Position numbers and translations under genes: made by a program. Under the pieces are notes generated by a model. It worked only from the letters and a program-made list of their open reading frames with translations. It searched no databases and was not told the DNA's origin. Of a DNA stretch of 20,000 bases, positions 2-19,560 are shown piece by piece (position 1 is the stretch's first letter; the number at the start of each line of letters is the position of its first letter). This DNA is from an uncultured virus (IMG/VR IMGVR_UViG_3300031851_000010) (lineage: Duplodnaviria > Heunggongvirae > Uroviricota > Caudoviricetes). The DNA lies in IMG/VR virus record IMGVR_UViG_3300031851_000010; one strand, given 5' to 3'.

Positions 2-3000
2 ACGGACACTGGTGGTTGGAAAGGTAGTACTCAAGGACTAAAAGGTAATCATGGTGTTGACGGTGATAAAGGTTTAAAAGGTGTACAGGGACCTGTAGGG
101 CCAACAGCTAATAGAGGTACAAGTGTTGATGGACCACAAGGTGATAAAGGTAGAAAAGGGTTAAAAGGTCTCAAAGGTAGATTTGGTACTATAGGTACTA
201 GTTGGGCGTTCCAAAATGATGGTGATAAAGGTTTAAAAGGACCACAAGGTCCAACATCCACTGAAGTGGGTCCGAAAGGTGAAAAAGGTAATCGTGGAGT
301 TCAGGGTGAAGAGGGTATTAAAGGTGCTATTGGAGATAAAGCCAGTCAAGGACCTGTAGGTTTACAAGGTTCAAATTCAGATAAAGGTATTGTTGGTGAT
401 AAAGGTAATAAGGGTTTAAAAGGACCACAAGGACCTAAAGGTGTCAAAGGTATTGAAGGTGAAAAAGGTAAAAAAGGTTCTTTAGGACCACAAGGACCAG
501 TTTCACAATCGGGTTCATCTGCGGATAAAGGACTTAAAGGACTTAAAGGTCTTCAAGGAACAAAAGGTCCGAAAGGTATTCAAGGTACTCAGGGATTACA
601 AGGACCAATAGCAAGTGTTGGTTCACAAGGACCCATAGGACCTAAAGGTCCAACAGGAGAAAAAGGTATAAAAGGGCTGATAGGTGTTAAAGGTCTTAAG
701 GGTGTGAAAGGTCTTAAGGGTGTGAAGGGACATAAAGGACTTATTGCTGTAAGTGGTGATAATGGTCAACAAGGTCCAACGGGGGCTCAAGGACCAATAG
801 GTTATAAAGGGGACAAGGGACTTAAAGGTCTTCAAGGAACAAAAGGTCCGAAAGGTATTAAAGGACCACAAGCCAGTACAACTACACAAGGACCACAAGG
901 ACCACAAGGATTACAAGGAATCACTTCAACAGATAAGGGTATTAAGGGTCAAAAAGGGTTAAAAGGTGTAAAGGGTTTAAAAGGTTTAAAACCTAATAGA
1001 GGTACTCAAGGAGGTATCGGTACACAAGCATCACAAGGACCTACTGGACCAACAGGACCTAAAGGTGATGATAAAGGTCAGAAAGGTCTAAAAGGTATTA
1101 AAGGTCTAAAAGGTAATAGAGGACCACAAGGACCTCAAGGTGCGATTGGTAATCAAGGTAGTATAGCCTCGACAGGTGACAAAGGTATAAAGGGTGTAGT
1201 TGGACCAACACCATTCAAAGGACTTAAAGGTCTTAAGGGTAATAAAGGTTTAAAAGGACCTAAAAATTCACAAGGTCCACAAGGTCCAACAGGTAATCAG
1301 GCGTCTATAGGTGATAAAGGTAATCGAGGTGCTACTTCAACCGATAAGGGTCTTAAGGGACCTAAAGGTTTAAAGGGTATTGAAGGACCTAAAGGACCTA
1401 TTGGGTTACAAGGTCCACAATCAAGTACAGGAACTGTAGGGGAACAGGGACCACAGGGTGACCAAGGACCACAAGGTCCAACTTCAACTGATAAAGGTAT
1501 AAAAGGACAAAAAGGTTTAAAGGGTTTAACTGGTGGACGTGGACCACAAGGAAGTGATGGTGTAAGAGGAGGTAAAGGACCGCAAGGGCCAACAGGTAAC
1601 AGAGGTAATATTGGTGTATCATCCGACAAAGGTAATAGAGGTCCACAGTCTGAGGAAAAAGGACTTAAGGGTCCTCAAGGCGATAGAGGTTCACAATCTA
1701 CTGATAAGGGTCAAAAAGGTCCACAAGGAAGTAGAGGGAGTCAAGCCGCACAAGGACCAACAGGACCGGCAAGTACCGATAGAGGTCCGGTTGGTAATAG
1801 AGGACAACAAGGAAAACAATCTACTGATAAAGGTCAAAAAGGTCCACAGGGACCACAGGGGGACCAAGCCGCTGCAGGACCAACGGGTCCACAAGGTCCA
1901 ACCAATGACACTAAAGGTCATAAAGGGTTAAAGGGTTTAAAAGGAGTTAAAGGTAATAGAGGTAGTCAAGGTCCAAGAGGACCACAAGGAGCAACATCAA
2001 CCGTAAAGGGGTATAAAGGTATAACCAGTACTACTAAAGGTATTAAAGGACAGAAAGGTTATAAAGGACCTAAAGGGCCAAGAGGTTCTGTTGGTAATAG
2101 AGGGGCACAAGGTGCGACATCAATAGTAAAAGGGGCGAAAGGACCAAATAATTCTGAAAAAGGGCTAAAAGGACTAAAAGGTTTAAAAGGGCCAAAGGGT
2201 AATAGAGGTAACCAAGGACCACAAGGTGTTAGAGGAGCCAATTCAACGGTTAAAGGGTTTAAAGGGATAGATAATACAACTAAAGGTCCAAAAGGTTTAA
2301 AAGGAGTTAAAGGTAATCGAGGAAATCAGGGGTCGCAAGGACCGCAAGGACCAAGAGGTTCAGCTTCAACTACACAAGGACCAAAAGGTCCAACTAATAA
2401 TACTAAAGGTCAAAAAGGTGCAGTTGGTGATTCAGGAATAAAAGGTGATAAAGGTATACGAGGACCGCAAGGACCAAGAGGAAATGATTCAACAGTAAAA
2501 GGATTAAAAGGACAGCCAAGTACTGAAAAAGGTTTAAAGGGACTTAAAGGGCCAAAAGGGCCGAAGGGTAATAGAGGTAATCAAGGACCTCAAGGGTCAA
2601 GAGGAAATGATTCAACAGTAAAAGGACCAATAGGACCGTCAAGTTCAGAAAGGGGTCTACAGGGTGTTAAAGGATTAAAAGGGCGAAAAGGGCCAAAGGG
2701 ACGTAAAGGTATTAAGGGACCACAAGGTTCTCAATCTACAGATAAAGGTCAAAAAGGTTTTATAGGTACAGATAAAGGTCTTAAAGGTCTACAAGGTAGT
2801 AAAGGACCTAAAGGAAATAGAGGACCACAAGGCTCACAAGGACCAAGAGGTCTACAATCTACAGATAAAGGTATAAAAGGTTATAAAGGACCAAGAGGTT
2901 CAAATGGACCAACAGGTCCAGGTGGGTCAAATGGGTCAGGTGGTCCAACAGGGCCAACAGGTGGTGGAGGTTCAAATGGACCAACGGGACCACAAGGACC

Positions 3001-3745
3001 AGCAGGTACTGAAAAAGGGTTAAAGGGTCTTAAAGGACTAAAAGGCCCTATTGAAAAACAAGGTAGTCAAGGACCAATAGGTCCGCAAGGTAATACTTCA
3101 ACAGTAAAAGGACCAACAGGGCCAATTGGTAATGACCTTGGACCAACAGGTCCAACAGGACCACAAGGTCCGGCAAGTACGGATAAAGGTCCGATAGGAC
3201 CAAAAGGACCAACATCAACAGTAAAGGGGGTAAAAGGACTAAGAGGGCCAATTGGTAGTACGGGACCAAGAGGAGGACAAGGAACAAGTGGACCACAGGG
3301 ACCGACAGGACCACAAGGACCGGCTGGTAGTGGTGGTGCGACAGGGCCAACTGGTGGACAAGGACCTAAAGGTCCAAAAGGACCAAGAGGTTTACAAGGA
3401 CCACAGGGACTACAAGGTCCAGCATCAGATAAAAGATTAAAAAATAATATTAAATCTTTAAAAGGTAATCTAAGTAAGTTAAAATTAATTGACGGTGTAA
3501 AGTTTACATGGAAAGGTGGGTCAACTAAATTTGAAAATAATTATGGTGAAGATTTTGGATTTATCGCTCAAGATATTGAAAAAGTTATACCTGAAGTTGT
3601 ATTTAATAGTGAGAGTGGTTATCTAAAACTTGAGTACGGTAAATTAGTTGCGATTGGTATAGGTTCTATACAAGAACAAAACACACGTATTGAAAATATA
3701 ACAGATAGAATTAACATATTAAAATCAAAAATTTTAAATGGGTAG
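2..3745 (+). CDS. Collagen-like fibre protein A with C-terminal peptidase S74 autochaperone; 5'-truncated
   Basis: Frame 2 is open from nt 2 ([20 protein letters not shown]...) into the GTG at 266, so 266 is not the real start. About 1130 aa of interrupted Gly-X-Y follow, then SDKRLKNNI...GVKFTWK...[15 protein letters not shown]...LEYGKL at 3425-3745. Stop is TAG. Confidence 0.9.
1988..2848 (+). repeat. Seven tandem 123-bp (41-aa) degenerate super-repeats within collagen A
   Basis: Units such as [17 protein letters not shown](GXY)8 and [17 protein letters not shown](GXY)8 were counted by hand as 41 aa each. Confidence 0.85.
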
Positions 3746-6700
3746 AGACATTAAAATAAATCCAACGGGTGGGACAATCAGTTTTTCAGGTACTAATAGT
3801 ACTATGATTAATATTGACTATAATAGTGGTGAATTAAATTTCAACACCCACTTAGGTAATGATTTTAAAATTACTTCAAACTTAGAGTTAGATAATATAA
3901 AGTTTATGCCGTCTGTTTCAGTAAAGAAAGAGAATAGTAACGAACTAATTGATGACTTAGGTAAGTGGAAGGGTTACCCTATGAATATGATTGGACCGAC
4001 TGGTACACAAGGTCCAAATGGACCTACAGGTCTTAAGGGTAGTAGAGCGGTTGATGGAGAAAAAGGTTTAAAAGGTAAAAAAGGTTTAAAAGGTATAACT
4101 TCTACTGAACAAGGTCCACAGGGTGACCAAGGTACTAAGGGGTTAAAAGGTATCAAAGGAGAAAAGGCTAACCAAGGACCTATAGGGCCAACAGGTGTCA
4201 AAGGTCAAATAGGTCCTCAGGGTAATACAGGACCAATAGGTCCGACATCTTTAAAAGGTCCAGTAGGACCACAAGGGTTTAAAGGTTTCAAAGGTAATAA
4301 AGGTATAAAGGGATTAATTGGTGACTCACTGAAAGGTCCTACAGGATTATCGGCGAGTAAAGGTAACCAAGGACCCACAGGTACTAATAAAGGACCAATT
4401 GGTCCAAAAGGTGAGGTAGGTGTAAAAGGACCTCAAGGACCAATTGGGATTACTGCAAATGTAGATGTTTATGTTTTCTATGACGCGACATCAATGCCAA
4501 GTGATAAAGCTAAAGAAGCTTCGCAGAGTGTTAGAGATTGGTTCCAAACGGTAAATGGTGATGGTGATATTAATAAACTATACGAGGGGGTAATTGGTAA
4601 AAATTCTCATAATGGTGAAAACTGGTTATGGTGGGCATCTTACCCATATCTTGGTTCACTATCCGGAGGTACCTTATCTGATAACACACAAATTAATGAA
4701 TTTAATAGTGCTGTACCTAATGCAACTTATCAATCTGATTATTGTAAGTCTAACTCAGGTGGTAATTGTGTACCAAGAAACTCACAATTTAATGATGGTG
4801 AAACGATATATAGAAGAATTAACAGAGGTGTTAATTTAGATACAGGTGCCGCTGAAACAATATCTCAGGGTGTACCTTTTGACCATAGTGATTTAAATAA
4901 TACGGAAACATCGGGACAAGGTTCATTTGGTGGTGATAATACTAACTATTTGGTAATTATTGTTGCTGATGAGTCAGATGGTCTTGTTGGTTTATATCAT
5001 GGACAGGTAGGTGGGACTAATAGTAATCCAACTAAGAGTGATTTGTATAATAAACCATTTGAATTAAATGGTAATTATTGGAATAATAATGCGGGTGATG
5101 AATATACGAATAGGTATTTACACGATTACTGTTCTTATGTTCAAGTATATGAAGATATTATATCCAATAGAGGGGGTAATGCTCAAGGTTTAGTTTATCC
5201 AGTTGTAAACCCACTTAGAGGTACTTCAACTTATGCGTTTGTTCAACATGCAGTAGCAGCAATTGAGGGTAGTACCATCACTAGTAATGAGTTTTTAAAC
5301 AGATATGGTGATAACATAACTTCAGTTGGTCCTGAAAACTTAAATTTAAGTGCATTAACAAGAACAAATGTATATTCAGGTTTAACGTCTGAAACTTGTT
5401 ATACAAATTTAGAAAGTAGTTTTAAAAATGGTTCAGGACTAAAACATTTTGGATTTGATGTTGACCCTACTGTTAGTAATTTTACGGAATCCGTTGTTAC
5501 AAACGCTTTAACGTCTTTTCTAAGACAACAAGGTGAAACTGGTGACGAAGGTAATAAAGGAATCGCTGGTGACGATAAAGGAACTAAAGGATTAAAAGGA
5601 TTAAAAGGATTAAAAGGTTTAAAAGGGGCTAAAGGACCTGATACCGATAGTGGAACAAAAGGTGTGGTAGGTGAAAAGGGACCTATCGGTGTTGATGGAC
5701 CTGTTGGTGATTTAAAAGGTCCAAAAGGTGAAGTTGGAGTTGTTGGACCAAAAGGTATTAAAGGACCTGATGGTTCCATAGGTGTTTCACCCAAAGGTCA
5801 AATAGGTCCTGATGGTGACCAAGGACCTACAGGTGGTAGAGGTGAAACTTCTACCGATAAAGGTGAAAAAGGTATTAAAGGTAGAAGAGGTAATAAAGGT
5901 CTTAAAGGTATTAAAGGTGTCAAAGGTCTAATAGCTAGCCAAGGAGATACGGGACCAACAGGTCCTCAATCCGATAAAGGTCTGACCGGTAATAAAGGTG
6001 ATAAAGGTCTCAAAGGTTTAAAAGGTCGAAAAGGATTACTTGGTCCACAAGGACCACAAGGAGCAATTGCTGACCAAGGAGCTCAAGGTCCAGTTTCACA
6101 AGATGGTGAGGGAGCGGATAAAGGTCTTAAAGGACTTAAAGGATTAAAAGGGTTAAAAGGTAAAAAGGGTATTGATGGGACAAAAGGACCTCAAGGGCCA
6201 ACAAGCCAAGGTAATGAGTTAGGACCTACAGGGGAAAAGGGTCAAAGAGGACCACAGGGAGATAAAGGTAATAAAGGTTATAAAGGATTAAAAGGTAAGA
6301 AAGGTGTTAAGGGACCTAAAGGACCTAAAGGTTTAATCGCGAGTCAAGGTGATGGAGGACCACAAGGACCAACGGGACCAGTGGCGGACCAAGGTAATAA
6401 AGGACTTAAAGGATTAAAAGGTAATAAAGGTTTTAAAGGGTTAAAAGGTTTAATAGGGCCTCAAGGAAATAAAGGACTTAAAGCCAGTCAAGGTGATGCG
6501 GGCCCACAAGGTCCTGAAAGTATCAAAGGGCAAAAGGGTTATAAAGGTATCAAAGGTCAAAAAGGTTATAAAGGACCACAAGGTAATAAAGGACCTAAAG
6601 GTTTAAAAGGGTTAAAAGGTGTTACTGGTGATAAAGGTTTAATAAGTGTATCTGCAGGTGACAAAGGAATTAAAGGTCAAAAAGGTTTTAGAGCCACTGA

Positions 6701-9059
6701 TGGTGATAAAGGTATAAAAGGTCAAAAAGGTTATAAAGGTCCAGATGGTAGTAGAGGTACTACTTCAACAGTTAAAGGTCTTAAGGGTCAAAAAGGTCTC
6801 AAAGGATTAAGAGCAACTGATGGAGTAAAAGGTAGTAAAGGATTAATAGGTATTAAGGGACCAAGAGGACCACAGGGTGGAAGAGGAACAACAACAGGTA
6901 CTGGTGGAGAACAAGGACCACAAGGTCCAACAGGTCCGGCAGCATTTAAAGGACTAAAAGGAATAAAAGGTTATAAAGGACCTAAAGGACCTAAAGGGCC
7001 GAAAGGAACACAAAGTACATCTCAAGGACCTACAGGACCTGGAGGAGATAATGGACCAACAGCCTATAAAGGACTTAAAGGTCAAAAAGGTATTAAAGGG
7101 GCTTATGGACCAAAAGGTCCAATAGGTTCAGCGACAGGAGATGGTGGACCTCAAGGTCCAACAGGGGATAATGGACCGACAGCATTCAAAGGGTTAAAAG
7201 GGTTAAAAGGACATAAAGGGTATAAAGGACCTAAGGGACCACAAGGACCATCAACTGCCGATGGAGGACCACAAGGTCCAACAGGTCCGGCAGCATTTAA
7301 AGGTATTAAAGGTAAAAAAGGGACTAAAGGACCTAAAGGATATAAGGGACCTTTAGGACCACAAGGAGCGACAACAGGTGTTGCTGGTGATAAAGGACCA
7401 CGAGGTCCTCAAGGACAGACAGGACCGACAGCATTCAAAGGATTAAAAGGTACAAAAGGTTTAATAGGACCTAAAGGACCGACAGGAAATCAAGGAACAC
7501 AAAGTGGTCCAACAGGTCCAACAGGTGCAGGTGGACCCGCAGCATTCAAAGGGTTAAAAGGGTTAAAAGGACATAAAGGGTATAAAGGACCTTTAGGACC
7601 ACAAGGAACTGGTAGTTCAGTTAAAGGTTATAAAGGAGAAAGAGGGCCAAATGGACCGACCGCTCAAAATGGTGATACAGGTCCAACAGGACTAAAAGGA
7701 CCAAAAGGTCCACAAGGACCGACAGGTCCTCAAAGTACTTCAAAAGGACCAAAAGGTGCTGTAGGTATTGGAGGTCCAGCCGCTTTCAAAGGACTAAAAG
7801 GTATTACAGGTGAGAAAGGTTTAAAGGGTCAGTTAGGACCTACAGGGCCAGCAAATAGTGATAAAGGTACTCGTGGTCCACAAGGAACAACTAATACAAC
7901 TAAAGGACCAAAAGGACCAAAAGGTCCACAAGGTGGTAGAGGTCCACAAGGTGGTAGAGGACTAATAGGTACCCAAAGCACATCTCAAGGACCGACAGGA
8001 CCAATAGGACCATTAGGACCAAAAGGTTTAAAAGGACATAAAGGAATTAAAGGTTACAAGGGCCCAAGAGGACCTCAAGGGTCGAAAGGGTCACAATCAT
8101 CTAAAACAGGACCAAGAGGACCACAAGGTCCGAGAGGTAATGCTTCTACAGATAAGGGTCAAACAGGTATCGCTGGAAATCCCGGACCACAAGGACCAAC
8201 AGGACCAAAAGGTTATAAAGGTTATAAAGGACCTAAAGGGTATAAAGGTCGACAAGGTGGTAGTGGTCCACAAGGTCTTCAAGGTCCACAAGGACCAAGA
8301 GGCCCACAAGGGTCAGATGGACCAGCAGCGTTATCTGGACCAACAGGACCAAAAGGTTTAAAAGGTAATAAAGGTATAAAAGGACCCACAGGTGGTGCGT
8401 TTTGTTTCGCTCATGACATTGCGGTAAGAGCAGGTGAAGATTGTGCGTATTGTAATGGTAGAAGTAGCCCATGTGGAGATAAGGTAAATTTGACTGTATA
8501 TAAAGGTGATATACAACCATTAGCTCAGGGTGATATCCTCTATACTGACCCAGATTGTAAAGATTGTAGAGAATTTGAGGGATTACCATGTATGAGAAAT
8601 CTATCTACAGATTTTATAACTATATGGGACGCGGTCAACTTAGGTGGAGTTTTATTTTCATGGGTAATTACACCACCACCTAAATCAGTAGTAAATGCTT
8701 GTGAAATATATGCTTGTGCCGATTGTAGGGCTTCTGATAGTAGACTTAAACATGGTACTAAAACATTAAGTGACTCTTTGAATAAGTTACTAAAAATTAA
8801 TGTTACGGAATATGATTGGAATGAAAATTATACAGGATATGACTTCTTAAAGGAAAGACAAAAATTACATTCAATTGGTATGATAGCACAAGAAATAAAC
8901 TTATTATATCCTGAAGTAGTTTATAGAAGGGATGATGGTTATTTAGCTATTAAGTATTATAAATTAAATGCATTAATTATTGAAGCGATTAAAAGTCAAC
9001 AAGTATTTATTGAAGACATAGAGGAACAAATAAACTGGTTAAGAACACAAATAGATTAA
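3738..9059 (+). CDS. Collagen-like fibre protein B (1773 aa): N-domain, collagen, vWA-like insert, collagen, Cys-rich domain, peptidase S74
   Basis: ATG overlaps the upstream stop by 8 nt. Gly-X-Y tracts flank a 359-aa globular insert (4455-5531). A 111-aa 10-Cys segment lies at 8400-8732, followed by SDSRLK...YDWN...GMIAQE...PEVV...IKYYKL from 8733. Confidence 0.9.
6933..7865 (+). repeat. About 40-aa degenerate super-repeats (GP[AT]A[FY]K anchored) within collagen B
   Basis: Spacings between GPxAxx units were counted as 40, 40, 37, 46, 37, 40 and 40 aa. Confidence 0.75.
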
Positions 9060-12000
9060 TGGCTAATATTATAATATATCCTACGGGAAGTACATTAAAC
9101 ACCAATCCACATATAATTTTTAGTGGTACAGGTGTTGATTATACTATTGAAATAGATACTACAGGTGATTTAGTATTTAAGTCTTCTACAAATATTTTTA
9201 AAATATCTGATAGTGCTACTCCATTATCATTACCAGGTGAGGTTAATGTTATTAATAGTGAACTTTATGTTGGTAGTATGATGGTAGTTGACTCTGGAGG
9301 TCATTGGGTTGGGCAGACAGAAGGTCTTAAAGGTCAAAAAGGTCTCAAAGGACTACAAGGTGTTGACGGTGATAAAGGTTTAAAAGGTAATAAAGGTATT
9401 CAGGGAATCGTTGGACCTACAGGTGATAAAGGTGACTTCGGTATCAAAGGTGGTATTGGTTCTGACGGAGAAAAAGGAATCAAAGGTGAGCTTTCAGTCA
9501 AAGGGGATAAAGGTAACCGAGGACCACAAGGTGAGAAAGGTATTGTTGGACCTAAAGGGTTAAAAGGGTTAAAGCCGTCAGACTCAACAAAAGGTCTTAA
9601 AGGACCAACAGGTCTAAAAGGGTTAACATCTTCAGATAAAGGAACTAAAGGTCCGACAGGTCTTAAAGGTGTTAAAGGAAATAAGGGTCTAAAACCTGAA
9701 CAAGGACCAAAAGGTAGTATAGGTGGTGATTCACCTCAAGGGCCAACAGGTTTAAAAGGGCCGACATCATCAGATAAAGGTCAAAAAGGACCAAAAGGTA
9801 TAAAAGGTGTAAAGGGACAAAAAGGTATTCTTGGAAATCAAGGTCCACAAGGTGATAAAGGTGTTAGGTCGACAGATGGGGATAATGGACCACAAGGACC
9901 AACAGGACCTACCGCTGATAAAGGACCTATTGGTAACAAAGGTATAAAAGGTCTTACAGGACCACAAGGTCCGCAAGGTCCTGATGGTATTGTAGGTGTA
10001 CAAGGACCTGATGGTGATTTAGGACCAAGAGGTCCACAATCTACAGACAAAGGTGATAAAGGTATCAAGGGTATTAAAGGTATCAAGGGTATTAAAGGAC
10101 CTAAACAAGGTAGAGGTGTAATAGGTACACAAGGTGAAAAAGGATTTATCGGACCACAAGGTCCAACAGGTCCAGGTGGACCAGCAGCCGTTAAAGGACC
10201 AATAGGTCCACAAGGACCGACAGGACCAAAAGGATTTGATGGAGATAGAGGGTTGCAGGGTGATTCACTAAAAGGACCTACAGGTTCTGGTGGAGATAAC
10301 GGACCTCAAGGACCGGCAAGTACTGATAAAGGTACGAAAGGGTTAAAGGGATTAATTGGTATCAAAGGTATTAAAGGATTAATCGGACCACAATCATCAA
10401 CTAGTTCAGGGTCACAAGGACCTACAGGTCCACAAGGACCAATTGGACCTGCAAGTTCTGACAAAGGTTTAAAAGGACCAGAAGGTACTAAAGGGTTAAG
10501 AGGACCACAAGGGCCTCAGGGACCTCAAGGTAATAATGAAAAGGGACTTATAGGTGATGTTGCCGTTGGTGGAGATATTGGACCAACAAATACAGATAAA
10601 GGACTACAAGGACCTACAGGTGATAAGGGACCTAAAGGTTTTCAAGGACCGAGAGGTACAATTGGTACTTCACCTAAAGGGGCGAGAGGAACACAAGGAC
10701 CAACAGGTCCAACAGCTGAAAAAGGTCCGAGTGGTACGTCCACAAATAAAGGTAATAAAGGTATCAAAGGTATCAAAGGACCGAAAGGTACAGATGGACC
10801 GAGAGGAACTATTGGAAATAGTATAACGGGACCAACAGGACCCAACGGACCAACAGGACCTAATAATGCCGATAAAGGACTTAAAGGTCCACAAGGACCA
10901 ACAGGTCCAACTAATACTGATAAAGGAACACAAGGACCAAAAGGTCCTAGAGGTAATCAAGGTGGACAAGGACCTCAAGGTCCGACAGGACCAAAGGGAA
11001 CTACCGGTGGACAAGGACCGACAGGTCCATCAAGTACTGATAAAGGTATTAAAGGGCAAAAAGGTTATAAAGGTACTAAAGGACCAAATGGCCCCACCGG
11101 TCCTACAGGACCAAAAGGTACTAAAAATACCACACAAGGTGATAAGGGACCATCTTCAACAGATAAAGGTTTAAAAGGTTATAAAGGACCAAAAGGTTTA
11201 CAGACAGGGAGAGGTACACAAGGGTCACAAGGACCTAAAGCATCTAATGGGGCAACAGGTCCTACAGGACCAAAAGGACCTGCAAGTACTGATAGAGGTC
11301 CAATAGGACCAAAAGGACCACAAGGTAATGATGGTAACCGAGGTCCCCAAGGTAGTGCGTCAGGTACAGGTATTCAAGGACCAACAGGACCCAAAGGACC
11401 GGCAGGTAATACTGCAGGACCAAAAGGAGCTATAGGTCCACGACAAAGCCAAGGCTCGCAAGGACCACAAGGTTCTAAAGCTAGTCAAGGTACTAATGGA
11501 CCTACAGGACCACAAGGTCCGGCAAGTACAGATAGAGGTCCACAAGGTAATAAAGGTATTAAAGGTGATTTAGGACCACAAGGGCCTAAGGCAACACAAG
11601 GTTCTGGTGGTGATACAGGTCCACAAGGACCGACAGGTCCATCAAGTACTGATAAAGGTAATAAAGGTTTAAAAGGTGGTCTTAAATCACAAACATCAGA
11701 TAAAGGTATTAAGGGTTACAAAGGGCCGAGAGCGGCAACGGGTCAACAAGGTCCACAAGGACCGGCAAGTTCTGTTAGGGGACCAGAAGGTAATAAGGGT
11801 CCAAGAGGGCCTCAGGGTTCACAAGGACCACAAGGACCTAAAGCTAGTCAAGGTCTTAATGGACCTACAGGACCACAAGGTCCGGCAAGTACGGATAAAG
11901 GTAATAAAGGTATTAAAGGTCCGAGAGGTGGACAAGGTCCACAAGGACCTACAGGTTATCAACCTGGACAAGGTCCACAAGGACCTAAAGGGGCTGTAGG

Positions 12001-13030
12001 TGCTGATGGTAATGAGCCAGGACCACGAGGACCCCAAGGACCACGAGGACCGCAAGGGCCTACAGGTCCACAAGGACCCAAAGCCTCTGGAGGGGCGACA
12101 GGTCCGACAGGTAAAGAAGGTCCGGCAAGTTCAGAAAAGGGACCAAGAGGAAATGTAGGTAGTCAAGGACCAAAAGGACCTAAAGGGTTCAAAGGTGGAC
12201 AAGGACCCAAAGGACCTAAAGGTCATAAGGGGAATACAGGGGAAAAAGGATTTAAAGGTCCAAAAGGTTACAAAGGTCCTAGAGGACCGCAAGGACCCCA
12301 AGGTTTAAAAGGACCAAGATTATCTCAAGGGTCAGGAGACGTAGGTGATACAGGACCACAAGGACCGGCAAGTACTGAAAAAGGTCTTAAAGGACCTAAA
12401 GGTCCTAAAGGAGCTAAAGGACCAAAAGGCCTAAAAGGACATAAAGGTTATAAAGGACCTAAAGGTCCAAAAGGTGTACTTGGTAAAGATGGACCACAAG
12501 GTCCGCAAGGTCCAAAAGGACCTACAGGTTCTGGCGGACCAACAGGGCCAGCAGGACAAAAAGGACCAAAAGGACTTAAAGGGATTAAAGGTAGAACCGG
12601 AGAAAAAGGTTTAAAAGGACGAACTTCAAGTCAAGGCTCACAAGGTATTCAAGGAACTCAAGGACCGGCAGGAGCCCAAGGTCCGGCGGGTTCTTTTTCC
12701 GATAAAAGATTAAAGGAAAATATTAAAAAAATTGATACACCTTTACAGAAAGTTTTAAATCTACGTGGTGTTGAATTTATATGGAAAGAAGAAAATCTCG
12801 ATGGTACCGTTTTACTTGATGGTGGTAGAAAAGATATTGGAGTTATTGCTCAAGAGGTAAAAGAAGTTTTACCTGAATTAATTGGTGGTTCAGAAGAAAG
12901 AGGTTATAAAGTTAGTTATGAACAATTAATCTCAGTATTATTTGAAGCAATTAAGGAACAAGAATTAATCTTAAAGGATAAAGATGGTGAACTAACTGAG
13001 TTAGAGGGAAAGTTTAAACGTAATCAATAA
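9059..13030 (+). CDS. Collagen-like fibre protein C (1323 aa) with C-terminal peptidase S74 autochaperone
   Basis: TAATG coupling. The N-domain resembles that of B (IxPTG...IxFSGT...DxxGxWxG). About 1125 aa of interrupted Gly-X-Y, then SDKRLKENI...GVEFIWK...[15 protein letters not shown]...VSYEQL from 12698. Confidence 0.9.
11276..12139 (+). repeat. About 120-bp (40-aa) degenerate super-repeats (GPASTD[KR] anchored) within collagen C
   Basis: [49 protein letters not shown] and GPASSEK recur at 40-aa spacing (once 41). Confidence 0.8.
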
Positions 13031-14069
13031 TCATATCATTTAAATACTTTTTAACTAAAGTATGGTCGGCATAATCATAATAACTTCTACTCATTGATGC
13101 ACCTTCAATTACTTCCTCAGTAATCATTTCTTTAGTGAGGTCTTCAAAGTCACCATAATAGTCAAATGCATTTCTATAATCATCTAATTGATAGTCATCA
13201 TTAAAAATTGAACTAAATAAAAAAGGTATGAATTTGGTAACTTCAATGATGTAGTTATATATAGTTTTCTCCTCACCTTTACTATTCTTTATGGTCTTAG
13301 ATTCCCAATCACCACTATTATCTATCTCCAATAAACTTCTAACTTCACTCATTATTTCATTATACTTTTCATCGGTATATGCTGTATTATATGAGTTATG
13401 GTGAAGTGAATATAAATTACTTGAAACTTCAGAAGCTTCATCTAATAAAACTTTAGTAGATGTTTCATCTTCTTCTAAAATATCCATTACTAACATAGGG
13501 TCTTTAACATCAACATAATCGGGGTGACCTTGGTCTTTAGCCATATTTTCTAATAACTCAGTTTCGGGTGAAATTTGAGTTCCTGATAATTCTTCAGATA
13601 TTGATTTGGCAAGTAAGAATTTATTTTTTTCATTTAACTCTTCAATAACATCGGTATACAAATTTTGAGTAACATCGCTAAATGGTTCGAACCAATCATC
13701 TTCACCTAAAATATTTTTAACCATTTCCGATGATGACATTTCACGATTACCGTCATCTGATTTAAAAAAAATACTTAAGTCTGACCTTTCACCAAGAGTT
13801 AAAAAATATTTATCACCTTTCTTAGTTATATCACTATAAGTGGAAACAATGTTATCGATAGTTTTTTTACGGTCATCAATATAACTCTTTCTTAGATAAG
13901 TCATTGGAAACATTTCAATAACACTTTCGTATGTGTCGGAGTTTTGAAGTAACCCAAACCTTTCTAACAAATCAAAAAAACTATCCTTATCTCCATTGAG
14001 ATAACGGTTGATAAAGTCTTCAACCTCACCTGAACCTCCCGATAGTATATTGATAATTTTTTCTTTCAT
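13014..14069 (-). CDS. Acidic hypothetical protein (351 aa)
   Basis: Long ORF in AT-rich DNA with ATG start and an upstream TATATTTAT motif. D/E/Y-rich, with no family recognised. Confidence 0.85.
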   Translation of the reverse strand: MKEKIINILSGGSGEVEDFINRYLNGDKDSFFDLLERFGLLQNSDTYESVIEMFPMTYLRKSYIDDRKKTIDNIVSTYSDITKKGDKYFLTLGERSDLSIFFKSDDGNREMSSSEMVKNILGEDDWFEPFSDVTQNLYTDVIEELNEKNKFLLAKSISEELSGTQISPETELLENMAKDQGHPDYVDVKDPMLVMDILEEDETSTKVLLDEASEVSSNLYSLHHNSYNTAYTDEKYNEIMSEVRSLLEIDNSGDWESKTIKNSKGEEKTIYNYIIEVTKFIPFLFSSIFNDDYQLDDYRNAFDYYGDFEDLTKEMITEEVIEGASMSRSYYDYADHTLVKKYLNDMIIDYV

Positions 14070-14085
14070 AACACGTTATTTACAT

Positions 14086-14094
14086 ATAAATATA
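14086..14094 (-). promoter_or_regulatory. TATATTTAT motif, putative phage promoter element
   Basis: Lies 16 nt upstream of the ATG at 14069, on the coding strand. The identical 9-mer precedes two neighbouring genes. Confidence 0.5.
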
Positions 14095-14119
14095 AAAAAA
14101 GGTGAGTTTTACCTCACCT
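14094..14119 (-). terminator. Rho-independent terminator downstream of the 43-aa ORF
   Basis: The minus strand reads AGGTGAG-GTAAAA-CTCACCT followed by a T run: a 7-bp perfect stem about 28 nt after the TAA at 14148. Confidence 0.75.
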
Positions 14120-14147
14120 ATTTACCCCAATCCCTTATTTTGTTTAA

Positions 14148-14279
14148 TTACTTCTTATCGTAATACTTTTCAACCGTCTTTTTGATGGCTTCTTTAACAG
14201 TTTGAGTGTTTGTACTTTTAACAGTTTGTGAACTTTGTTTTGTTTGGTTTTTGTTTTTGTTTTTACATCCGCATCCCAT
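14148..14279 (-). CDS. Small basic protein, 43 aa (MGCGCKNKNKNQTKQSSQTVKSTNTQTVKEAIKKTVEKYYDKK); absent from the ORF track
   Basis: Manual translation. It has its own upstream TATATTTAT motif and a downstream terminator. Confidence 0.75.
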   Translation of the reverse strand: MGCGCKNKNKNQTKQSSQTVKSTNTQTVKEAIKKTVEKYYDKK

Positions 14280-14310
14280 AGTTGATATTTTTTTAGTAAA
14301 GTTTATAATA

Positions 14311-14319
14311 ATAAATATA
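14311..14319 (-). promoter_or_regulatory. TATATTTAT motif, putative phage promoter element
   Basis: Lies 31 nt upstream of the ATG at 14279, on the coding strand. Confidence 0.45.
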
Positions 14320-14355
14320 AGTAACCATGAATTAGTGTAATAATCGGTTTTTATT

Positions 14356-14364
14356 TATATTTAT
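14356..14364 (+). promoter_or_regulatory. TATATTTAT motif, putative phage promoter element
   Basis: Lies 17 nt upstream of the ATG at 14382, on the coding strand. Confidence 0.5.
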
Positions 14365-14381
14365 GATAAAAGTACAATATT

Positions 14382-16001
14382 ATGAATCTTAGTCAAGTTT
14401 TATTAGAAAGTAGGAAGGATGATTTTTTAAGAATGTTTAGAGACAAGTTTTCTGACGAACAACTTAAAAAAGTTTTTACCCTATCTAGACAATTAGCCCC
14501 TAATCAAAAATTCCTTACATTTTTAGGTAAAGTTATACCTACAGAAAATTTTGATGAGAATTTAAGTAAAGCTGAAAAAGTAGTTGAGAAATTTATTAAG
14601 TACCAACAAGCTCTACAACAAAAAGATATTAATCAATTTAAAACTTTAGATGAGATAATAACTGCTATTAATAATCATGAGAATAAAGTTAGACGTACAG
14701 TTAAATCTGTTGATGGTGCTGATGTTGTTTATGAAGATGACCGATTTACGGTTGTAACTCCTCAAACACATAAGGCGAGTTGTTATTATGGTGCTGGTAC
14801 TAAGTGGTGTACTGCCTCTATGAATGGTTCTTCACATTTCGATAACTACAATGTAGATGGTAAACTTTTCTATATCTTAGATAAAAAAGCAAAAAGTAAT
14901 GACAAATATTATAAAGTGGCTTTATTACAAAAATATGATGGAGATAAAACATTCTATGATGCACCTGATAAATCTTTTAAAGATGGGTGGATATTAGGTA
15001 CTCCAGAATATGATGAAATTCAAAACGCGATTGATAAATACATTAATACTAACTACCAAAGAGAGATTAATATCTTTAAAGATAAAGAGGCGGCTAGACT
15101 TGAAAGAGAAAGATTAAGAAGAGTGGCTGAAAGACGTAGAATTGCTCAGTTAAGGGCTGATGCGGATGAAAGAAAAGAAGAGGATTCATGGAATTTAGAA
15201 AACGAACCTGACCAACAAGCGCTGGAGGCTAATGCGGTATTTGAAGTTATGGTTGATGAGTACGGCGTATCTGTTTTAGAAGAAGAAGGTGAGTCTATAT
15301 ATGATTTAATCCCGTCACAGTATAATCATTATGATTTACCAACATTTGAATGGGTAGGTGATGATGATACTGGAATAACCTTTGCTGTTGGTACGTGGGA
15401 TGAAGTATGGCAAGCGGCTAAAGAATATATGGAAGGACTATGGGATGACCAAGGGGCTGACGGATGGAGTAGCTCGTTTATTGAAAGTCATATTGATGAG
15501 CAGGAAGTTAGAGATTATTTTTATGATATGTTTGAAGATGATGTAAATAATAATTATGAATCATATTTTGATACAGACGAATTACCACTATCAGACGAAC
15601 AAGAATCTCAAGTAGCCAAATTAAAAGAAGAGGCAGAAGAGTTAGATGAGATAACTAGAAATGTAGATGACGTATATAATGAAGATGAGGTAGAATTAGC
15701 TGAAGATAGATGGAATGAAATAGATGATGAAATAACATATATTGAATCTGACCCTGAAGGTGAACCGACAGAGGAACAAATTGAAGATATGGTAAATAGT
15801 AGAGTTAATGATGTCATGTATGATATGATGGCTAGTATGACCGATTATGGTTTAGATATAAGTGACTATGTCGATAAAGATGCGTTATTTGAGTCAGCAA
15901 TTGATAGCGATGGTGTGGGTAATTCTCTTAGTAGTTACGATGGGTTAGATAATGAAGTAATGATAGGTGATACTTGGTTTCACGTTTTTAGAACAGAATA
16001 A
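14382..16001 (+). CDS. Phage hypothetical protein (539 aa): CYYGxGTKWCT domain, charged helix, highly acidic C-terminal domain
   Basis: KDINQF...VVYEDD...ASCYYGAGTKWCTAS is shared with the next ORF. An E/R-rich linker precedes a D/E-rich C-terminal half. Confidence 0.85.
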   Translation: MNLSQVLLESRKDDFLRMFRDKFSDEQLKKVFTLSRQLAPNQKFLTFLGKVIPTENFDENLSKAEKVVEKFIKYQQALQQKDINQFKTLDEIITAINNHENKVRRTVKSVDGADVVYEDDRFTVVTPQTHKASCYYGAGTKWCTASMNGSSHFDNYNVDGKLFYILDKKAKSNDKYYKVALLQKYDGDKTFYDAPDKSFKDGWILGTPEYDEIQNAIDKYINTNYQREINIFKDKEAARLERERLRRVAERRRIAQLRADADERKEEDSWNLENEPDQQALEANAVFEVMVDEYGVSVLEEEGESIYDLIPSQYNHYDLPTFEWVGDDDTGITFAVGTWDEVWQAAKEYMEGLWDDQGADGWSSSFIESHIDEQEVRDYFYDMFEDDVNNNYESYFDTDELPLSDEQESQVAKLKEEAEELDEITRNVDDVYNEDEVELAEDRWNEIDDEITYIESDPEGEPTEEQIEDMVNSRVNDVMYDMMASMTDYGLDISDYVDKDALFESAIDSDGVGNSLSSYDGLDNEVMIGDTWFHVFRTE

Positions 16002-17431
16002 TGAAGTTATTAAATTTAATAGAAGGTAGAAGAGAAGATATACTCAATCGTTTTGATGAGAACCCTGAGTTACGCAAAACAATAGAGGAGTTCTTAGACC
16101 ATGAATTCAATAAGAAAACAAATTATAAATATGTAAATTGGGTACTTAAAAGAAATTTTGATGACTTTGGTAATACAATTATTTCTTTAGATAGTGTAAT
16201 TAATTGGATTGAAAAATTTGATAGAGTAAGGAAAAACTTACAATACAAAGATATTAATCAATATAAAAACCTTCATGACCTTATCGATGCGTTAGAAGTT
16301 TACGGTGACACAAAAAGTGAAGAAAAAACTAAAGTAGAAGCGGGTACCTCAAAGATATATGAGGACTCTGAAGTTTTAATAGTTAAACCACTTACTCAAA
16401 AATCATCATGTTATTATGGTCAGGGTACCAAATGGTGTACGTCAGCCACATCTGGTGGTAACGCATTTAGAGCCTATAATGATAGAGGTCCTTTGTATTA
16501 TTTTATATTTAAAAATTTAAATAAAGATAATGATTATTATAAAATCGCCATTCATTATAATGTAGCTGAGGATAGGTACTCACTTTTTGATGCTAAAGAT
16601 AATTTTAATTCTAATCTGTTAGGTTTTTTAAAAACAAATTCAGCTTTCAATTCGATTGAAAAAGATATTGAAGAAAATCATAAAGTTGATGAATCTAAAA
16701 GTTTAGAGATTATGTTAATTAAACTTATTAGAGAAAATAAGTTTAATTTTAGTAAAATTAGAAAATATGTTTTATACGATAAGTTAGTTAATATAATTGG
16801 TGATGATAAAGGTACGAGACCACTTGTAGTCGGTTGGTATGGTGAAAAACGTATTATGATTAAAGTAAGTGATAACGATGAGGAAATAGAATTTAGGGAA
16901 TTAAGAAACAGTACTCCAAATTATGTTTATGATAGGAGACCTCTATATGAAATGGTAGAATATCTTGAGTCTAAATCGGACCCATATGATTTAGCACATT
17001 TATTAAGTCAAAATACTATACATACTAATTATAAAGTTATTAGAGATATATTTAATTTCTTTATTGAAGAATTACATGAAGAGTTAAGTGTGGGTAATCA
17101 AGAAGGTTTTAAGTTTTGGAACCCTGTAAACTCACATTCAAATTACCGTTTTGAAAGTAGAAATCCTGATAATGCTTACATTAAATTTTTAAATTATATA
17201 ACTCAAAAAACAAATGAAGGGGAACCAGCCAGTAAGAGAGATTTCTTAATTAATGTCTTAGAAAAAGACCCTGAAGACGTAGTATTTTCAGGATATCTCT
17301 CAACAATGTTCAGTTCAATGAAAGATGCTGGACTCGTTAGTCTTTACAGAGCCAATACTTCGCCTTATTTTAGGTACAGGCTTGGGCCCAACCACAGTGT
17401 TTGGGAAAAAGGAAGACTAAAGAGAATATGA
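16001..17431 (+). CDS. Phage hypothetical protein (476 aa), paralogue of the upstream gene at its N-terminus, with an unrelated C-terminus
   Basis: TAATG coupling. Contains KDINQY...KIYEDS...SSCYYGQGTKWCTSA. Confidence 0.85.
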   Translation: MKLLNLIEGRREDILNRFDENPELRKTIEEFLDHEFNKKTNYKYVNWVLKRNFDDFGNTIISLDSVINWIEKFDRVRKNLQYKDINQYKNLHDLIDALEVYGDTKSEEKTKVEAGTSKIYEDSEVLIVKPLTQKSSCYYGQGTKWCTSATSGGNAFRAYNDRGPLYYFIFKNLNKDNDYYKIAIHYNVAEDRYSLFDAKDNFNSNLLGFLKTNSAFNSIEKDIEENHKVDESKSLEIMLIKLIRENKFNFSKIRKYVLYDKLVNIIGDDKGTRPLVVGWYGEKRIMIKVSDNDEEIEFRELRNSTPNYVYDRRPLYEMVEYLESKSDPYDLAHLLSQNTIHTNYKVIRDIFNFFIEELHEELSVGNQEGFKFWNPVNSHSNYRFESRNPDNAYIKFLNYITQKTNEGEPASKRDFLINVLEKDPEDVVFSGYLSTMFSSMKDAGLVSLYRANTSPYFRYRLGPNHSVWEKGRLKRI

Positions 17432-18204
17432 GATTAGATACCAATTGGATTTTACAAGAACCTATAGATTTAGAGCATAAACAATATGTTCTAATGGACT
17501 ATATTACCAAAGTTGATAAGGACTTTGATGAATTTAAGTTATACCCATCCTTCCAAGAATTGTCGTTACATTTAGCTAACGTTGGTTCAATTAAGGACCG
17601 TTCTAGATATATTACACTTAATAGGGAACCAGACGATATTGATGATGAAATATTATTAGACGACTTGGTGTATAATAATTTAAGACATAGTAAAGAAACT
17701 AAAGAAGAAATATCAAAGATTATAAAGTTTTCTCAGAGTAGATTAACGGATTTATTTTTAATAGGTAAGTCTATATGGACATTACTATATGATAATGTTT
17801 CAATACGAATTGTCTTTAATGACCTTAAAAAAACAAATACTAAACCAGGTATAGGGTTTTTTTATATTGTGTATGATGAGTTATTACATGTTTATCAATA
17901 TAGAATTAATACCTACACTAAAACAACTAATGAAAATAAATGTAAAGTAGATTTAATTTATAAAGGTGACGTGATAGACGTAACCGATAAAAAAAGTCTA
18001 ATTAATTTAATTAGAAGTAAAGCTATTATTTTCAATGAAAAAAAATCAGAAAAGTTTTTAAAACAGATAGAAGATTCATATCCTATTTTTAGGGTTAGGT
18101 ATGAAGAAAAATTTCCGTTAGAAGGTTCTATTTTATCTATAGCTAAGAGAAAGGTTATGAACTATATTTTTCAAACAATTAAAATTCAAGAATTAAAGTC
18201 CTAA
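17428..18204 (+). CDS. Hypothetical protein resembling a conserved Bacteroidota family
   Basis: The ATG at 17428 forms an ATGA overlap with the upstream stop and is preferred over TTG 17401. Motifs W..EPIDLEHKQYVLMDY..KLYP and PLEGSILSIAKR are recalled as similar to Bacteroidota hypotheticals (not searched). Confidence 0.75.
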   Translation: MRLDTNWILQEPIDLEHKQYVLMDYITKVDKDFDEFKLYPSFQELSLHLANVGSIKDRSRYITLNREPDDIDDEILLDDLVYNNLRHSKETKEEISKIIKFSQSRLTDLFLIGKSIWTLLYDNVSIRIVFNDLKKTNTKPGIGFFYIVYDELLHVYQYRINTYTKTTNENKCKVDLIYKGDVIDVTDKKSLINLIRSKAIIFNEKKSEKFLKQIEDSYPIFRVRYEEKFPLEGSILSIAKRKVMNYIFQTIKIQELKS

Positions 18205-18205
18205 G

Positions 18206-18628
18206 ATGAGTAACATTAAACTTAAAAAACCTGACCATATTGTATGGGACGAAGAAACTCAAAAATATAACGCAAATATATTACCTTATGGGAGTAGCGT
18301 ATCGGCGCCCGTTATTAAAATAGAAGATATTTCATCCTACAAACAAAGGAATGTACAAAAGATACAGAAAAAATTCAATAAAAAATACCAAGAATTAGTA
18401 GATGAATATAATAATTTAGTTGATGAAGTTAAATTAAATCAAATAGTGTATGAGTCTAAATTTTCTTTTGAGCCGATAATAGGTCATATTTATTATCTTT
18501 ATTATGGAGATGATGGAAAATATTTCTTATCATTAATAGAACCTGAAATGTGGAATCAAGAATTTGTTCTAAGTGTTGAACTAAATTCTGAACATAAATG
18601 GGTCTTAATAAAAAAACCTCAAAACTAA
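18206..18628 (+). CDS. DUF2452-like protein
   Basis: The pattern KKPDHIVW..LPYGSSVSAPVI..SKFSFEPIIGHIYYLY..FLSLIEP.MW matches my recollection of DUF2452. Confidence 0.7.
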   Translation: MSNIKLKKPDHIVWDEETQKYNANILPYGSSVSAPVIKIEDISSYKQRNVQKIQKKFNKKYQELVDEYNNLVDEVKLNQIVYESKFSFEPIIGHIYYLYYGDDGKYFLSLIEPEMWNQEFVLSVELNSEHKWVLIKKPQN

Positions 18629-19560
18629 TGAAACTTCAAAACCCTATAGACGTTAATATTACAGATAAAACTGTATCAGTTCTTTTAGCGGGTGGTTTGG
18701 GTAATATGATGTTTCAGACAGCAACCTTAATGGTCTACGCTAAAGAAATGGGTTATGACCCAATTGTTGGTTATTGGACTACACATCAATCAGAGAGTTC
18801 TAAATTTAATAAACATCTTAATCGAAATGGTAGAAATATACATTTTGACCCATGGGGTGGACACATATTAAAAGACCCACATATATCATTTGGTGATGTT
18901 TACCCTAAATTACCGTGGTTCGATAGTAGACCTAATGCCTTTGAATGGTGGTTTGACCAAAGTTTAGGGTGGGATATAGATACTGGTGAAGGTGGAGTGT
19001 ACTACGATTTAAAACAAAAAGTAAAACCACCTTACCTATTTCAGGGTTACTTTTTTAATAAATTGTATTGGCATCACGAGAGGGATTATATTTTAGAAAT
19101 ATTCGAACCTGATGAAAATATAACAAATTATATTGAATACAATTATGGTAGTTTATTTAAAAATAGTATATCCTTACATCTAAGAATGGGTGGAGGTAGA
19201 CAAGATAATTTTTTTGATATAAAATTAATACCTGAAGAATGGGTTATTAAAATTTTAAATAATGAGAGTGAGGGACATAAAGTACTTGTGTTTTCAGATA
19301 ATTTAGAATCTGCCAAAAATTTCGTAAACAAATTAGGGTTTCCTAAGGAAAAGTTTGTTTATATTGATGAAGACCCGTATATTGCGGTTCATATGATGAG
19401 TATGTGTGATAAACACATATTATCAAATTCAACGTTATCATTTTGGGGTGCGTATCTTGATAAAAAACAAGAAAATGAGTATACTTTTATTCATGAAAGT
19501 TTTTTTGAAAGACATCCTTATAGTATGATACCTTACAATAAATGGAAAATTAATAATTAA
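18628..19560 (+). CDS. Glycosyltransferase family 11 (alpha-1,2-fucosyltransferase-like)
   Basis: GGLGNMMFQ, QGYF, SLHLR, VFSDN and MSMCDKHILSNSTLSFWGAYL are GT11 hallmark motifs. The ATG at 18628 (TAATG coupling) is preferred over 18598. Confidence 0.85.
   Translation: MKLQNPIDVNITDKTVSVLLAGGLGNMMFQTATLMVYAKEMGYDPIVGYWTTHQSESSKFNKHLNRNGRNIHFDPWGGHILKDPHISFGDVYPKLPWFDSRPNAFEWWFDQSLGWDIDTGEGGVYYDLKQKVKPPYLFQGYFFNKLYWHHERDYILEIFEPDENITNYIEYNYGSLFKNSISLHLRMGGGRQDNFFDIKLIPEEWVIKILNNESEGHKVLVFSDNLESAKNFVNKLGFPKEKFVYIDEDPYIAVHMMSMCDKHILSNSTLSFWGAYLDKKQENEYTFIHESFFERHPYSMIPYNKWKINN

Follow-up and report, generated by a model that had tools for sequence, protein, structure and literature searches.

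Three tandem collagen-like phage genes with a shared 13-triplet period and the case for one heterotrimeric fibre

Do three neighbouring collagen-like genes of a phage encode three fibres, or the three strands of one? The question is raised by a 20,000-nucleotide stretch of DNA (the window) from an uncultured virus of the Caudoviricetes, IMG/VR record IMGVR_UViG_3300031851_000010. The window carries three consecutive genes, here called A, B and C, and each product has an N-terminal domain of about 85 residues, a long Gly-X-Y rod and a C-terminal Peptidase_S74 (S74) domain. We think it probable that A, B and C are three different strands of a single heterotrimeric collagen-like fibre, because the three rods have equal numbers of triplet steps, co-vary by single triplets and carry deletions at the same height, and because each locus has one N-terminal domain and one S74 domain of each type. 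With slightly less confidence, we favour the wider view that this is a natural heterotrimeric collagen outside animals, in which a shared 13-triplet module, gained and lost jointly, indexes the register, and in which the trios of S74 and N-terminal domains select the chains.

The three genes are as follows.

Gene A (domain types NA and CA), 232 nucleotides (nt) upstream of the window to 3745, + strand: 1325 residues, 5' end cut by the window; Trp84 at 17-19
Gene B (NB and CB), 3738-9059, + strand: 1773 residues, 8-nt overlap with the end of A; Trp77 at 3966-3968
Gene C (NC and CC), 9059-13030, + strand: 1323 residues, ATG overlapping the stop codon of B (TAATG); Trp83 at 9305-9307

All three products matched the Pfam family Collagen (PF01391) above its cut-off (E = 4e-98 for A, 7e-105 for B and 6e-96 for C). 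They also matched Peptidase_S74 (PF13884), with 53.1 (A, E = 4e-14), 38.1 (B) and 62.1 bits (C) against a cut-off of 22, and the genome record contains exactly three matches to this family, all of them in A, B and C. PHROG tail-fibre families matched the three chains as well, mostly via the collagen repeats.

A 13-triplet period and its register

We mapped the breaks in the Gly-X-Y pattern of each chain by Viterbi segmentation. Positions were counted from the Trp at the end of the N-terminal domain, which is invariant in 13/13 sequences of each N-domain type, and a 359-residue insert in B was removed. Under this count the rods extend 1135 (A), 1118 (B) and 1130 (C) residues from the Trp to the rod end, with 51-52 breaks per chain. 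As a null model for the spacing of breaks, the order of helical runs and breaks was shuffled 300 times. An initial sequence-only reading of the window had proposed strict 41-residue units in A (13 triplets plus 2 residues) and units of about 40 residues in B and C, built from different motifs and placed in the same zone after the conserved Trp. The segmentation bore this out, and the motifs it had named, including GxxSTVK/GxxNTTK and GPAAFK, were present.

Array of A, 1622-2980, + strand: 11 units, Trp-relative 535-987 (segmentation, 123-nt tandem period)
Array of B, 6645-8216, + strand: 13 units of about 40 residues, Trp-relative 534-1057 with the insert removed (segmentation, 120-nt period)
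Array of C, 10913-12139, + strand: about 10 units of about 40 residues, Trp-relative 536-944 (segmentation, 120-nt period)

Chain A has eight breaks exactly 41 residues apart, at Trp-relative 660, 701 ... 947 (window 1997-2869), a series reached by 0/300 shuffles. These breaks read STVK, SIVK, STTQ or STDK, and each is followed 10 residues later by a second four-residue break. The unit of A is thus a four-residue break, two triplets, a second four-residue break and nine triplets, or 13 levels in which 13 triplet equivalents are accompanied by two extra residues. Chain B has 13 frame-shifting breaks (534...1018) with a spacing of 40±3 residues (0/300 shuffles), five of them exactly 40 apart. 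Its unit opens with a +1 break (STSQ or a single T or S) and continues with four to five triplets, a Gly-to-Ala triplet AFK and seven triplets, again 13 levels; AFK or AYK is found in most units. In chain C, 11 frame-shifting breaks (536...941) have the same spacing of 40±3 residues (0/300 shuffles), and the 13-level unit consists of an STDK or STDR +1 break, seven triplets, an ASQ-type Gly-to-Ala triplet and four triplets. At zero spacing tolerance the series in C was not significant (three in a row, reached by 201/300 shuffles). Fourier power over the whole rods did not single out 40-41 residues (A, 155/1000; B, 734/1000), because the arrays occupy only part of each rod. The regular arrays had been expected to end at 944, 934 and 938 residues from the Trp in A, B and C; the last regular breaks fall within three residues of this, at 947, 937 and 941, but the series in B continues to 978 and 1018.

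At the DNA level, the arrays are old, diverged tandem repeats of 123 nt (A), 120 nt (B) and 120 nt (C) with 70-79% matches. It had been proposed that the period is conserved and the sequence is not. The period does hold, at 13 levels in every chain, but part of the sequence character is also shared: all three arrays have S/T-rich breaks of the S-T-x-K type, and their units are K-rich in one half and P/Q/T-rich in the other.

The breaks had further been read as lying in register between chains, with coincidence no better than in shuffled controls named as the outcome that would speak against it. Counted in residues, that outcome is what we found: the coincidence of all breaks at lag 0 equalled shuffled and lagged controls over the whole chains, before the zone of the arrays and inside it. 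With a tolerance of ±2 residues, 10/51 breaks coincided between A and B (11.6±2.8 in the controls) and 10/49 between B and C (11.1±2.9). Residues are the wrong ruler, however, because the residue added by a +1 break brings no additional helical step. We therefore used a triplet-level ruler, in which each Gly-X-Y counts as one level and each break as its length divided by three, rounded, so that level counts depend on the chosen segmentation and on this rounding. On this scale all three chains repeat every 13 levels, with no drift. The primary +1 breaks lie at levels 216, 229 ... 307 in A, 215, 228 ... 306 in B and 217, 231 ... 308 in C, and across the chains the frame-shifting breaks of the zone occupy levels n-1, n and n+1. 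At the exact level, frame-shifting breaks in the zone coincided at 8/22 positions for A-B (shuffles 3.1±0.9; 0/1000), 8/22 for A-C (3.1±1.0; 1/1000) and 7/14 for B-C (2.3±0.9; 1/1000); within one level, B-C reached 12/14 (4.5±1.3; 0/1000). Register between the chains thus holds for the triplet levels of the zone, and not in residues or outside the zone.

The shuffles also remove the periodicity itself. Under a random-phase null, the match of phase alone is worth p ~0.05, or (3/13)^2 by our own arithmetic. The period had been taken as independent support for co-assembly; because the shuffle null destroys periodicity and the phase match is worth only this much, it supports co-assembly weakly, and stronger support comes from the equal triplet counts and co-located insertions and deletions of relatives, described below. 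The phase is kept within two levels in five related lineages, which share ancestry.

Break positions were kept at 89/96 sites between the window type and the related locus L009. The identity of break residues was 66-76%, compared to 52-60% at X and Y positions. Because positions and residues of the breaks are better conserved than X and Y, the breaks are maintained features.

Other comparisons of the chains were less informative. Ungapped diagonal identity between chains gave no peak at lag 0, in a test blunted by frame drift. Circular profile alignment of the unit consensuses was best at rotation 0 for A-B and at rotation 24-25 for B-C, with rotation 0 close; the homology of individual breaks is not fixable by consensus rotation. 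Lys/Pro density in the zone was in phase for A-B in the window type (r = 0.43, rank 4/241); A-B in L009 (rank 44) and the other chain pairs were not in phase. Before the zone (Trp-relative 10-530), Lys density of B and C was anti-correlated at lag 0 (r = -0.49, the lowest of 241 lags; r = -0.43, rank 227, in L009), which could spread charge in a mixed helix. Strict bookkeeping of Gly phase as a test for a mixed helix was dropped, since each break resets the phase through a bulged residue.

The gene trio in related loci

Relatives were collected with the insert of B and the N-terminal domain of C as seeds. This gave 8 and 19 viral loci, 11 of the latter analysed, and 51 metagenome loci; 70 related loci were compared. 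Clusters that did not touch a contig end had three tandem collagen and S74 genes each, with the exception of L007, and none had more than three. The eight loci with the insert of B all contained A and C, and seven of them an unbroken B. The eighth, L007, is an otherwise identical relative in which the frame of B is interrupted (~9284-14560) and A and C are whole; a sequencing error is possible. All 11 of the further viral loci analysed fitted the three-gene pattern, as did 29/51 metagenome loci, the remaining 22 of which touch a contig end. Neighbouring genes of the trio overlap. A protein database search with the N-terminal domain of C gave no match among 77 candidates.

The terminal domains of the window, as delimited by alignments and Pfam, and the two non-collagen regions of B are listed here. 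The N-terminal domain of A lies mostly upstream of the window and is homologous to those of B and C.

N-terminal domain of B, 3738-3992, + strand: about 85 residues (alignments)
N-terminal domain of C, 9059-9322, + strand: homologous to the N-terminal domains of B and A (alignments)
Peptidase_S74 domain of A, 3425-3742, + strand: follows the last triplet immediately, with the Ser of SDKRLK as its first residue
Peptidase_S74 domain of B, 8733-9056, + strand: begins with SDSRLK
Peptidase_S74 domain of C, 12698-13027, + strand: begins with SDKRLK
Non-collagen insert of B, 4455-5531, + strand: 359 residues (240-598), at Trp-relative 163 (segmentation)
Cys-rich tip domain of B, 8400-8732, + strand: 111 residues between the collagen end and the S74 domain; no Pfam family above cut-off

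A Ser...Lys motif, SD[KSE]R[LVM]K, opens the S74 domain in 9/9 chains of the window type, L008 and L009. We take its Ser and Lys to be the autocleavage dyad of S74, with the spacing known from the endosialidase literature. In trees, the N-terminal domains formed three clades and the S74 domains formed three clades, each spanning near and distant relatives, and every locus had one of each. The pairing of the two sets is cyclically permuted between groups: near relatives combine NA-CA, NB-CB and NC-CC, and distant relatives NA-CB, NC-CA and NB-CC. The Cys-rich tip always accompanied the S74 type CB (L034-L040 and the window type). In the distant locus L034, genes 1-3 have DNA periods of 126, 129 and 123 nt (42, 43 and 41 residues), with gene 1 nearly free of breaks; the period is ancient.

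Within a locus, the triplet-level counts of the three genes were nearly equal, and between loci the rod length varied almost four-fold (98-370 levels). Examples with short rods are 98/99/98, 142/142/140, 154/154/153, 155/155/154, 156/156/157, 158/158/157 and 168/169/168, and examples with long rods 236/235/237, 271/269/270, 316/316/317, 343/342/343, 355/352/355 and 367/364/370; the rods of the window type have 364-370 levels. Of 25 distinct triples, 11 agreed within 2 levels (permutation mean 0.12; 0/10000), 14 within 3 and 18 within 6, and two had a range of 7. Lengths in residues differ more than lengths in levels, which indicates that the number of triplet steps is what is held equal. In L035, for example, the rods have 295/305/295 residues and 98/99/98 levels, because gene 2 has eleven single-residue insertions. 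An apparent excess of 185 residues in B of some loci was rejected as a difference in collagen length, as it is a second globular insert.

The 13-level module is the unit by which the three genes change length. Relative to the window type, L009 has about one unit fewer per chain (-39/-37/-45 residues), L029 and L030 have two fewer and L074 four fewer, in each case inside the periodic zone. Matched changes also occurred elsewhere in the rods. L059 is missing 140/135/135 residues at levels 116/106/108 of A/B/C, in the non-periodic part, which can be aligned unambiguously; L037 is missing 9/9/~10-12 residues at levels 139/130/117-131 compared to another distant relative; and each chain of L040 has gained about 10 levels at its C-terminal end. 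Among close relatives of L034 (L066, L069, L061, L067, L068 and L071-L073), the number of units differs in single genes, and the collagen of gene 1 measures 427, 385, 364, 343, 310 or 302 residues, in steps of ~21-42. This is either true repeat polymorphism or an assembly artefact.

Some relatives carry a module inserted in a single chain. PA14 (E = 1e-10) was found in B of L043 (L043:6591-7154) and in gene 1 of L076 (L076:2261-2800), a Laminin_G_3/ConA-like lectin (E = 8e-8) in B of L029 (L029:6735-7391), and a 174-residue insert without assigned family in C of L059 (L059:11765-12286); L030, L053 and L074 have no inserted module. The PA14 and concanavalin-like lectin modules sit at break sites. 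In B, two insertion sites are used repeatedly, Trp-relative 163 and ~393-396, and A has conserved breaks at 162 and 398. The 359-residue insert of the window's B had no match in named phages, Pfam or PDB sequences (best E = 0.13), and its AF2 model was poor (mean pLDDT 37.5). Its look-alikes by language model are vWA/integrin-beta-like clusters (0.85-0.91), a lead only.

One mixed fibre, separate fibres or a bundle

A single mixed triple helix requires the matches in level number and position described above, the joint change by single triplets and a full set of N-terminal and S74 types in each locus, however these are paired; independent flexible fibres need none of them. If A, B and C do share one helix, a rod of about 365 triplet levels would, with the collagen rise of 0.286 nm per residue, be about 315 nm long. 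By analogy with known S74 fibres, the S74 trio (CA, CB and CC) would nucleate trimerisation at the C-terminus and then cleave itself at the conserved Ser. The helix would zip from the C-terminus towards the N-terminus, where the three N-terminal domains would close the assembly, with NA, NB and NC packed against one another at the end nearest the virion. In its second half, the rod would consist of 13-level modules of about 11.2 nm, each opening with an S/T-rich break that adds one residue per chain at nearly the same level. Such near-level +1 breaks would mostly preserve the one-residue stagger between strands, and the one-residue bulges in all strands at nearly the same height would create regularly spaced soft sites, at which the rod may kink and whose S/T-rich residues may be decorated by glycosylation. 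The breaks could act as register marks, with slippage by anything other than a whole module penalised, and the module would be the quantum of rod-length change in all three genes.

Two further analyses bear on co-assembly. When the three N-terminal parts were co-folded, the predicted complex had an ipSAE of 0.74, compared to 0.02 for the best control; this mark is reached by 116/157 solved complexes and 2/215 mismatched pairs. The partners had a pLDDT of at least 79, and runs shared at least 93% of contacts. The prediction supports a trimeric N-terminal assembly and does not distinguish a heterotrimer from a homotrimer. We also looked for salt bridges of the form K/R-Gly-D/E, an idea taken from PMC11923368. 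Within chains, these triplets were depleted in five related lineages (counts of 13, 18, 10, 15 and 27, where shifted controls averaged 24-45; z -2.4 to -2.9). When chains were paired in the order A>B>C>A at equal level, such contacts were enriched (z +1.5 to +2.8), the peak being broad. This pattern gives the heterotrimer modest backing.

A number of observations weigh against a mixed helix. The coincidence of breaks between chains is at chance in residues, and the level counts that replace it rest on the segmentation and on the rounding of break lengths. Before level 170, frame-shifting breaks showed no excess coincidence (1/6, 0/6 and 2/11), and Gly-substitution breaks never coincided between chains above chance. 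The second +1 break in each unit of A is absent from B and C, and such unmatched breaks would each need to bulge out of a mixed helix. Five of the 25 triples (L039, L076, L066, L061 and L069) differ by 15-42 levels, or ~1-3 units; some are close kin of matched loci, so that either a mismatch of units is tolerated or the assemblies are imperfect. The compared lineages are related, and their counts are not independent. All three chains are strongly Lys-rich, with 131-155 Lys/Arg at Y positions and 20-31 Asp/Glu at X, and have no evident charge complementarity. Because the chains are paralogues, a homotrimer may score as well in the N-terminal prediction. Finally, PMC8968730 describes both S74 fibres and prokaryotic collagen-like proteins as homotrimers.

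This precedent, the unaligned breaks outside the zone, the extra shift per unit in A and the five triples mismatched by whole units would all be expected if the operon produced three separate homotrimers, A3, B3 and C3, each folded by its own S74 domain, with lengths kept equal by selection and a period inherited from a shared ancestral repeat. Three diverged S74 clades are equally suited to self-recognition, and a tip domain and lectin-type inserts on B alone resemble those of ordinary trimeric receptor-binding fibres. Against this, separate flexible fibres of 85-315 nm have no need to match within one to two triplets (<2 nm), to change jointly by single triplets (154/154/153, 155/155/154, 156/156/157) or to lose 45 matching levels at one height in all three genes, and A and C, once S74 had been cleaved off, would be left as bare collagen rods without a distal domain. 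We consider separate homotrimers unlikely, although they are the alternative to be taken most seriously. The period could also be devoid of structural meaning, a leftover of ~120-nt tandem duplication in an ancestral gene kept by concerted evolution within each paralogue. The arrays are indeed DNA tandem repeats, unit number is polymorphic among some close relatives, and rotation of the unit consensuses leaves homologous breaks unfixed. We see only a slim chance of this, as the paralogues split before the two phage groups did, and yet period, unit number and phase are matched in five lineages and the breaks outdo the X and Y positions in conservation of both position and residue. About as slim is the chance that three homotrimers lie side by side in one bundle, with their 13-level breaks aligned as in a staggered fibril. 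A bundle would account for the equal levels, the period and the phase and would retain homotrimeric folding by S74, but the high positive charge of all three rods would make lateral packing repulsive, no domain for bundling was seen, and the N-terminal parts are predicted to intertwine as a single trimer. Set against these alternatives, one fibre with A, B and C as its strands remains the reading that we favour.

Phage setting, known systems and meaning

The virus record to which the window belongs (G000) has 198,834 bases and is estimated to be 66% complete. The window differs from it at three bases (16340, 16345 and 19881), all away from the collagen trio. A Pfam scan of 107 other open reading frames in the record identified a T4-like myovirus marker set, including Gp23 (PF07068, E = 6e-72) and a gp20-type portal (PF07230, E = 4e-78), with further matches to PF03237, PF17482, PF12322 and PF03420. 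The proteins behind the assignment are capsid, portal, T4-type terminase, sheath, baseplate protein and prohead protease, and the source of the trio is, on this marker set, a T4-like jumbo phage. The lineage is an uncultured one, because the closest named capsid relatives are just 42-45% identical. There are two weak hints at the host: the cultured phages nearest by capsid infect Flavobacterium or Microcystis, and one protein of the record contains a CHU_C type IX secretion signal domain (L017:9279-10880, + strand, E = 5e-13). On the 3' side of the trio, at 14382-19560 on the + strand of the window, are two adjacent open reading frames that both match phrog_17056 and phrog_28193, of unknown function, with a DUF2452 protein and a GT11 fucosyltransferase-like protein encoded after them.

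Products encoded elsewhere in the record include a PLOD-type glycosyltransferase domain, a GT25 protein and a 2OG-Fe(II) oxygenase, as well as many other glycosyltransferases. The PLOD-type domain (PF25342, E = 1e-72) lies ~8.6-10 kb upstream of window base 1. The glycosylation and hydroxylation genes, as detected with Pfam, are at the following positions of G000, outside the window.

L021:14192-15574, - strand: PLOD-type glycosyltransferase domain
L016:330-1076, - strand: glycosylation/hydroxylation gene
L016:9975-10688, + strand: glycosylation/hydroxylation gene

These enzymes, together with the Gly-X-Lys-rich rods, suggest that Lys residues of the phage collagen may be hydroxylated and glycosylated. 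Both modifications are reported for mimivirus collagen, as mentioned in PMC8968730.

Phage fibres and spikes with a C-terminal S74 chaperone include the K1F endosialidase and the T5 L-shaped fibre. The S74 fibres known to us are single-gene homotrimers. A, B and C resemble them in matching PF13884 and in placing the SDxRxK Ser...Lys at the start of the domain; they differ in that the chaperone of A and C is fused directly to a collagen rod and in that three paralogous chaperone types are kept as a set. To our knowledge, a mixed triple helix of three chains has so far been physically shown only in animal collagens. The stalk of complement C1q is built from an A, a B and a C chain, whose three genes are clustered, and its interruption combines a one-residue insertion and a Gly-to-Ala substitution at one height. 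The phage trio is like C1q in having three neighbouring paralogous genes, stalks of equal length and the same two dominant kinds of break. Unlike C1q, which has one interruption and is trimerised by its gC1q heads, the phage chains have ~50 breaks each and an array of 11-13 units, and their S74 domains are probably removed.

According to PMC11923368, interchain contacts probably guard the register of interrupted animal collagens such as type IV. The phage chains share with type IV and vWA-bearing collagens long rods, many GnG interruptions and a globular module inserted in a chain, and differ from them in being viral, in having no hydroxyproline-type sequence and in their strict 13-level period. 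KGE and KGD triplets are depleted within the phage chains, and enriched in collagens generally according to PMC11923368. Like Scl1/2 and BclA, the phage chains have an N-terminal domain, a Gly-X-Y rod and a C-terminal domain, are Thr-rich and vary in length by repeat number; Scl1/2 and BclA are homotrimers according to PMC8968730, and here a trio of genes co-varies in triplet number. Full-text literature searches found no description of a three-gene or heterotrimeric phage collagen, and the only mention of "heterotrimer" found in a phage paper was the name of a PDB template.

If the three chains do form one helix, this would be a compact, bacterially expressible system for studying chain selection and register of collagen over more than 1000 residues. 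Chain selection and register are an open question for animal collagens and a practical obstacle for recombinant heterotrimers, which are described as hard to make in PMC8968730. Designed heterotrimers could draw on the conserved N-terminal domains and the S74 trio as candidate registration domains, and the 13-level module would be a natural length ruler. For the biology of phages, the trio would represent a kind of fibre that is widespread among large uncultured T4-like phages, very long and decorated with lectins.

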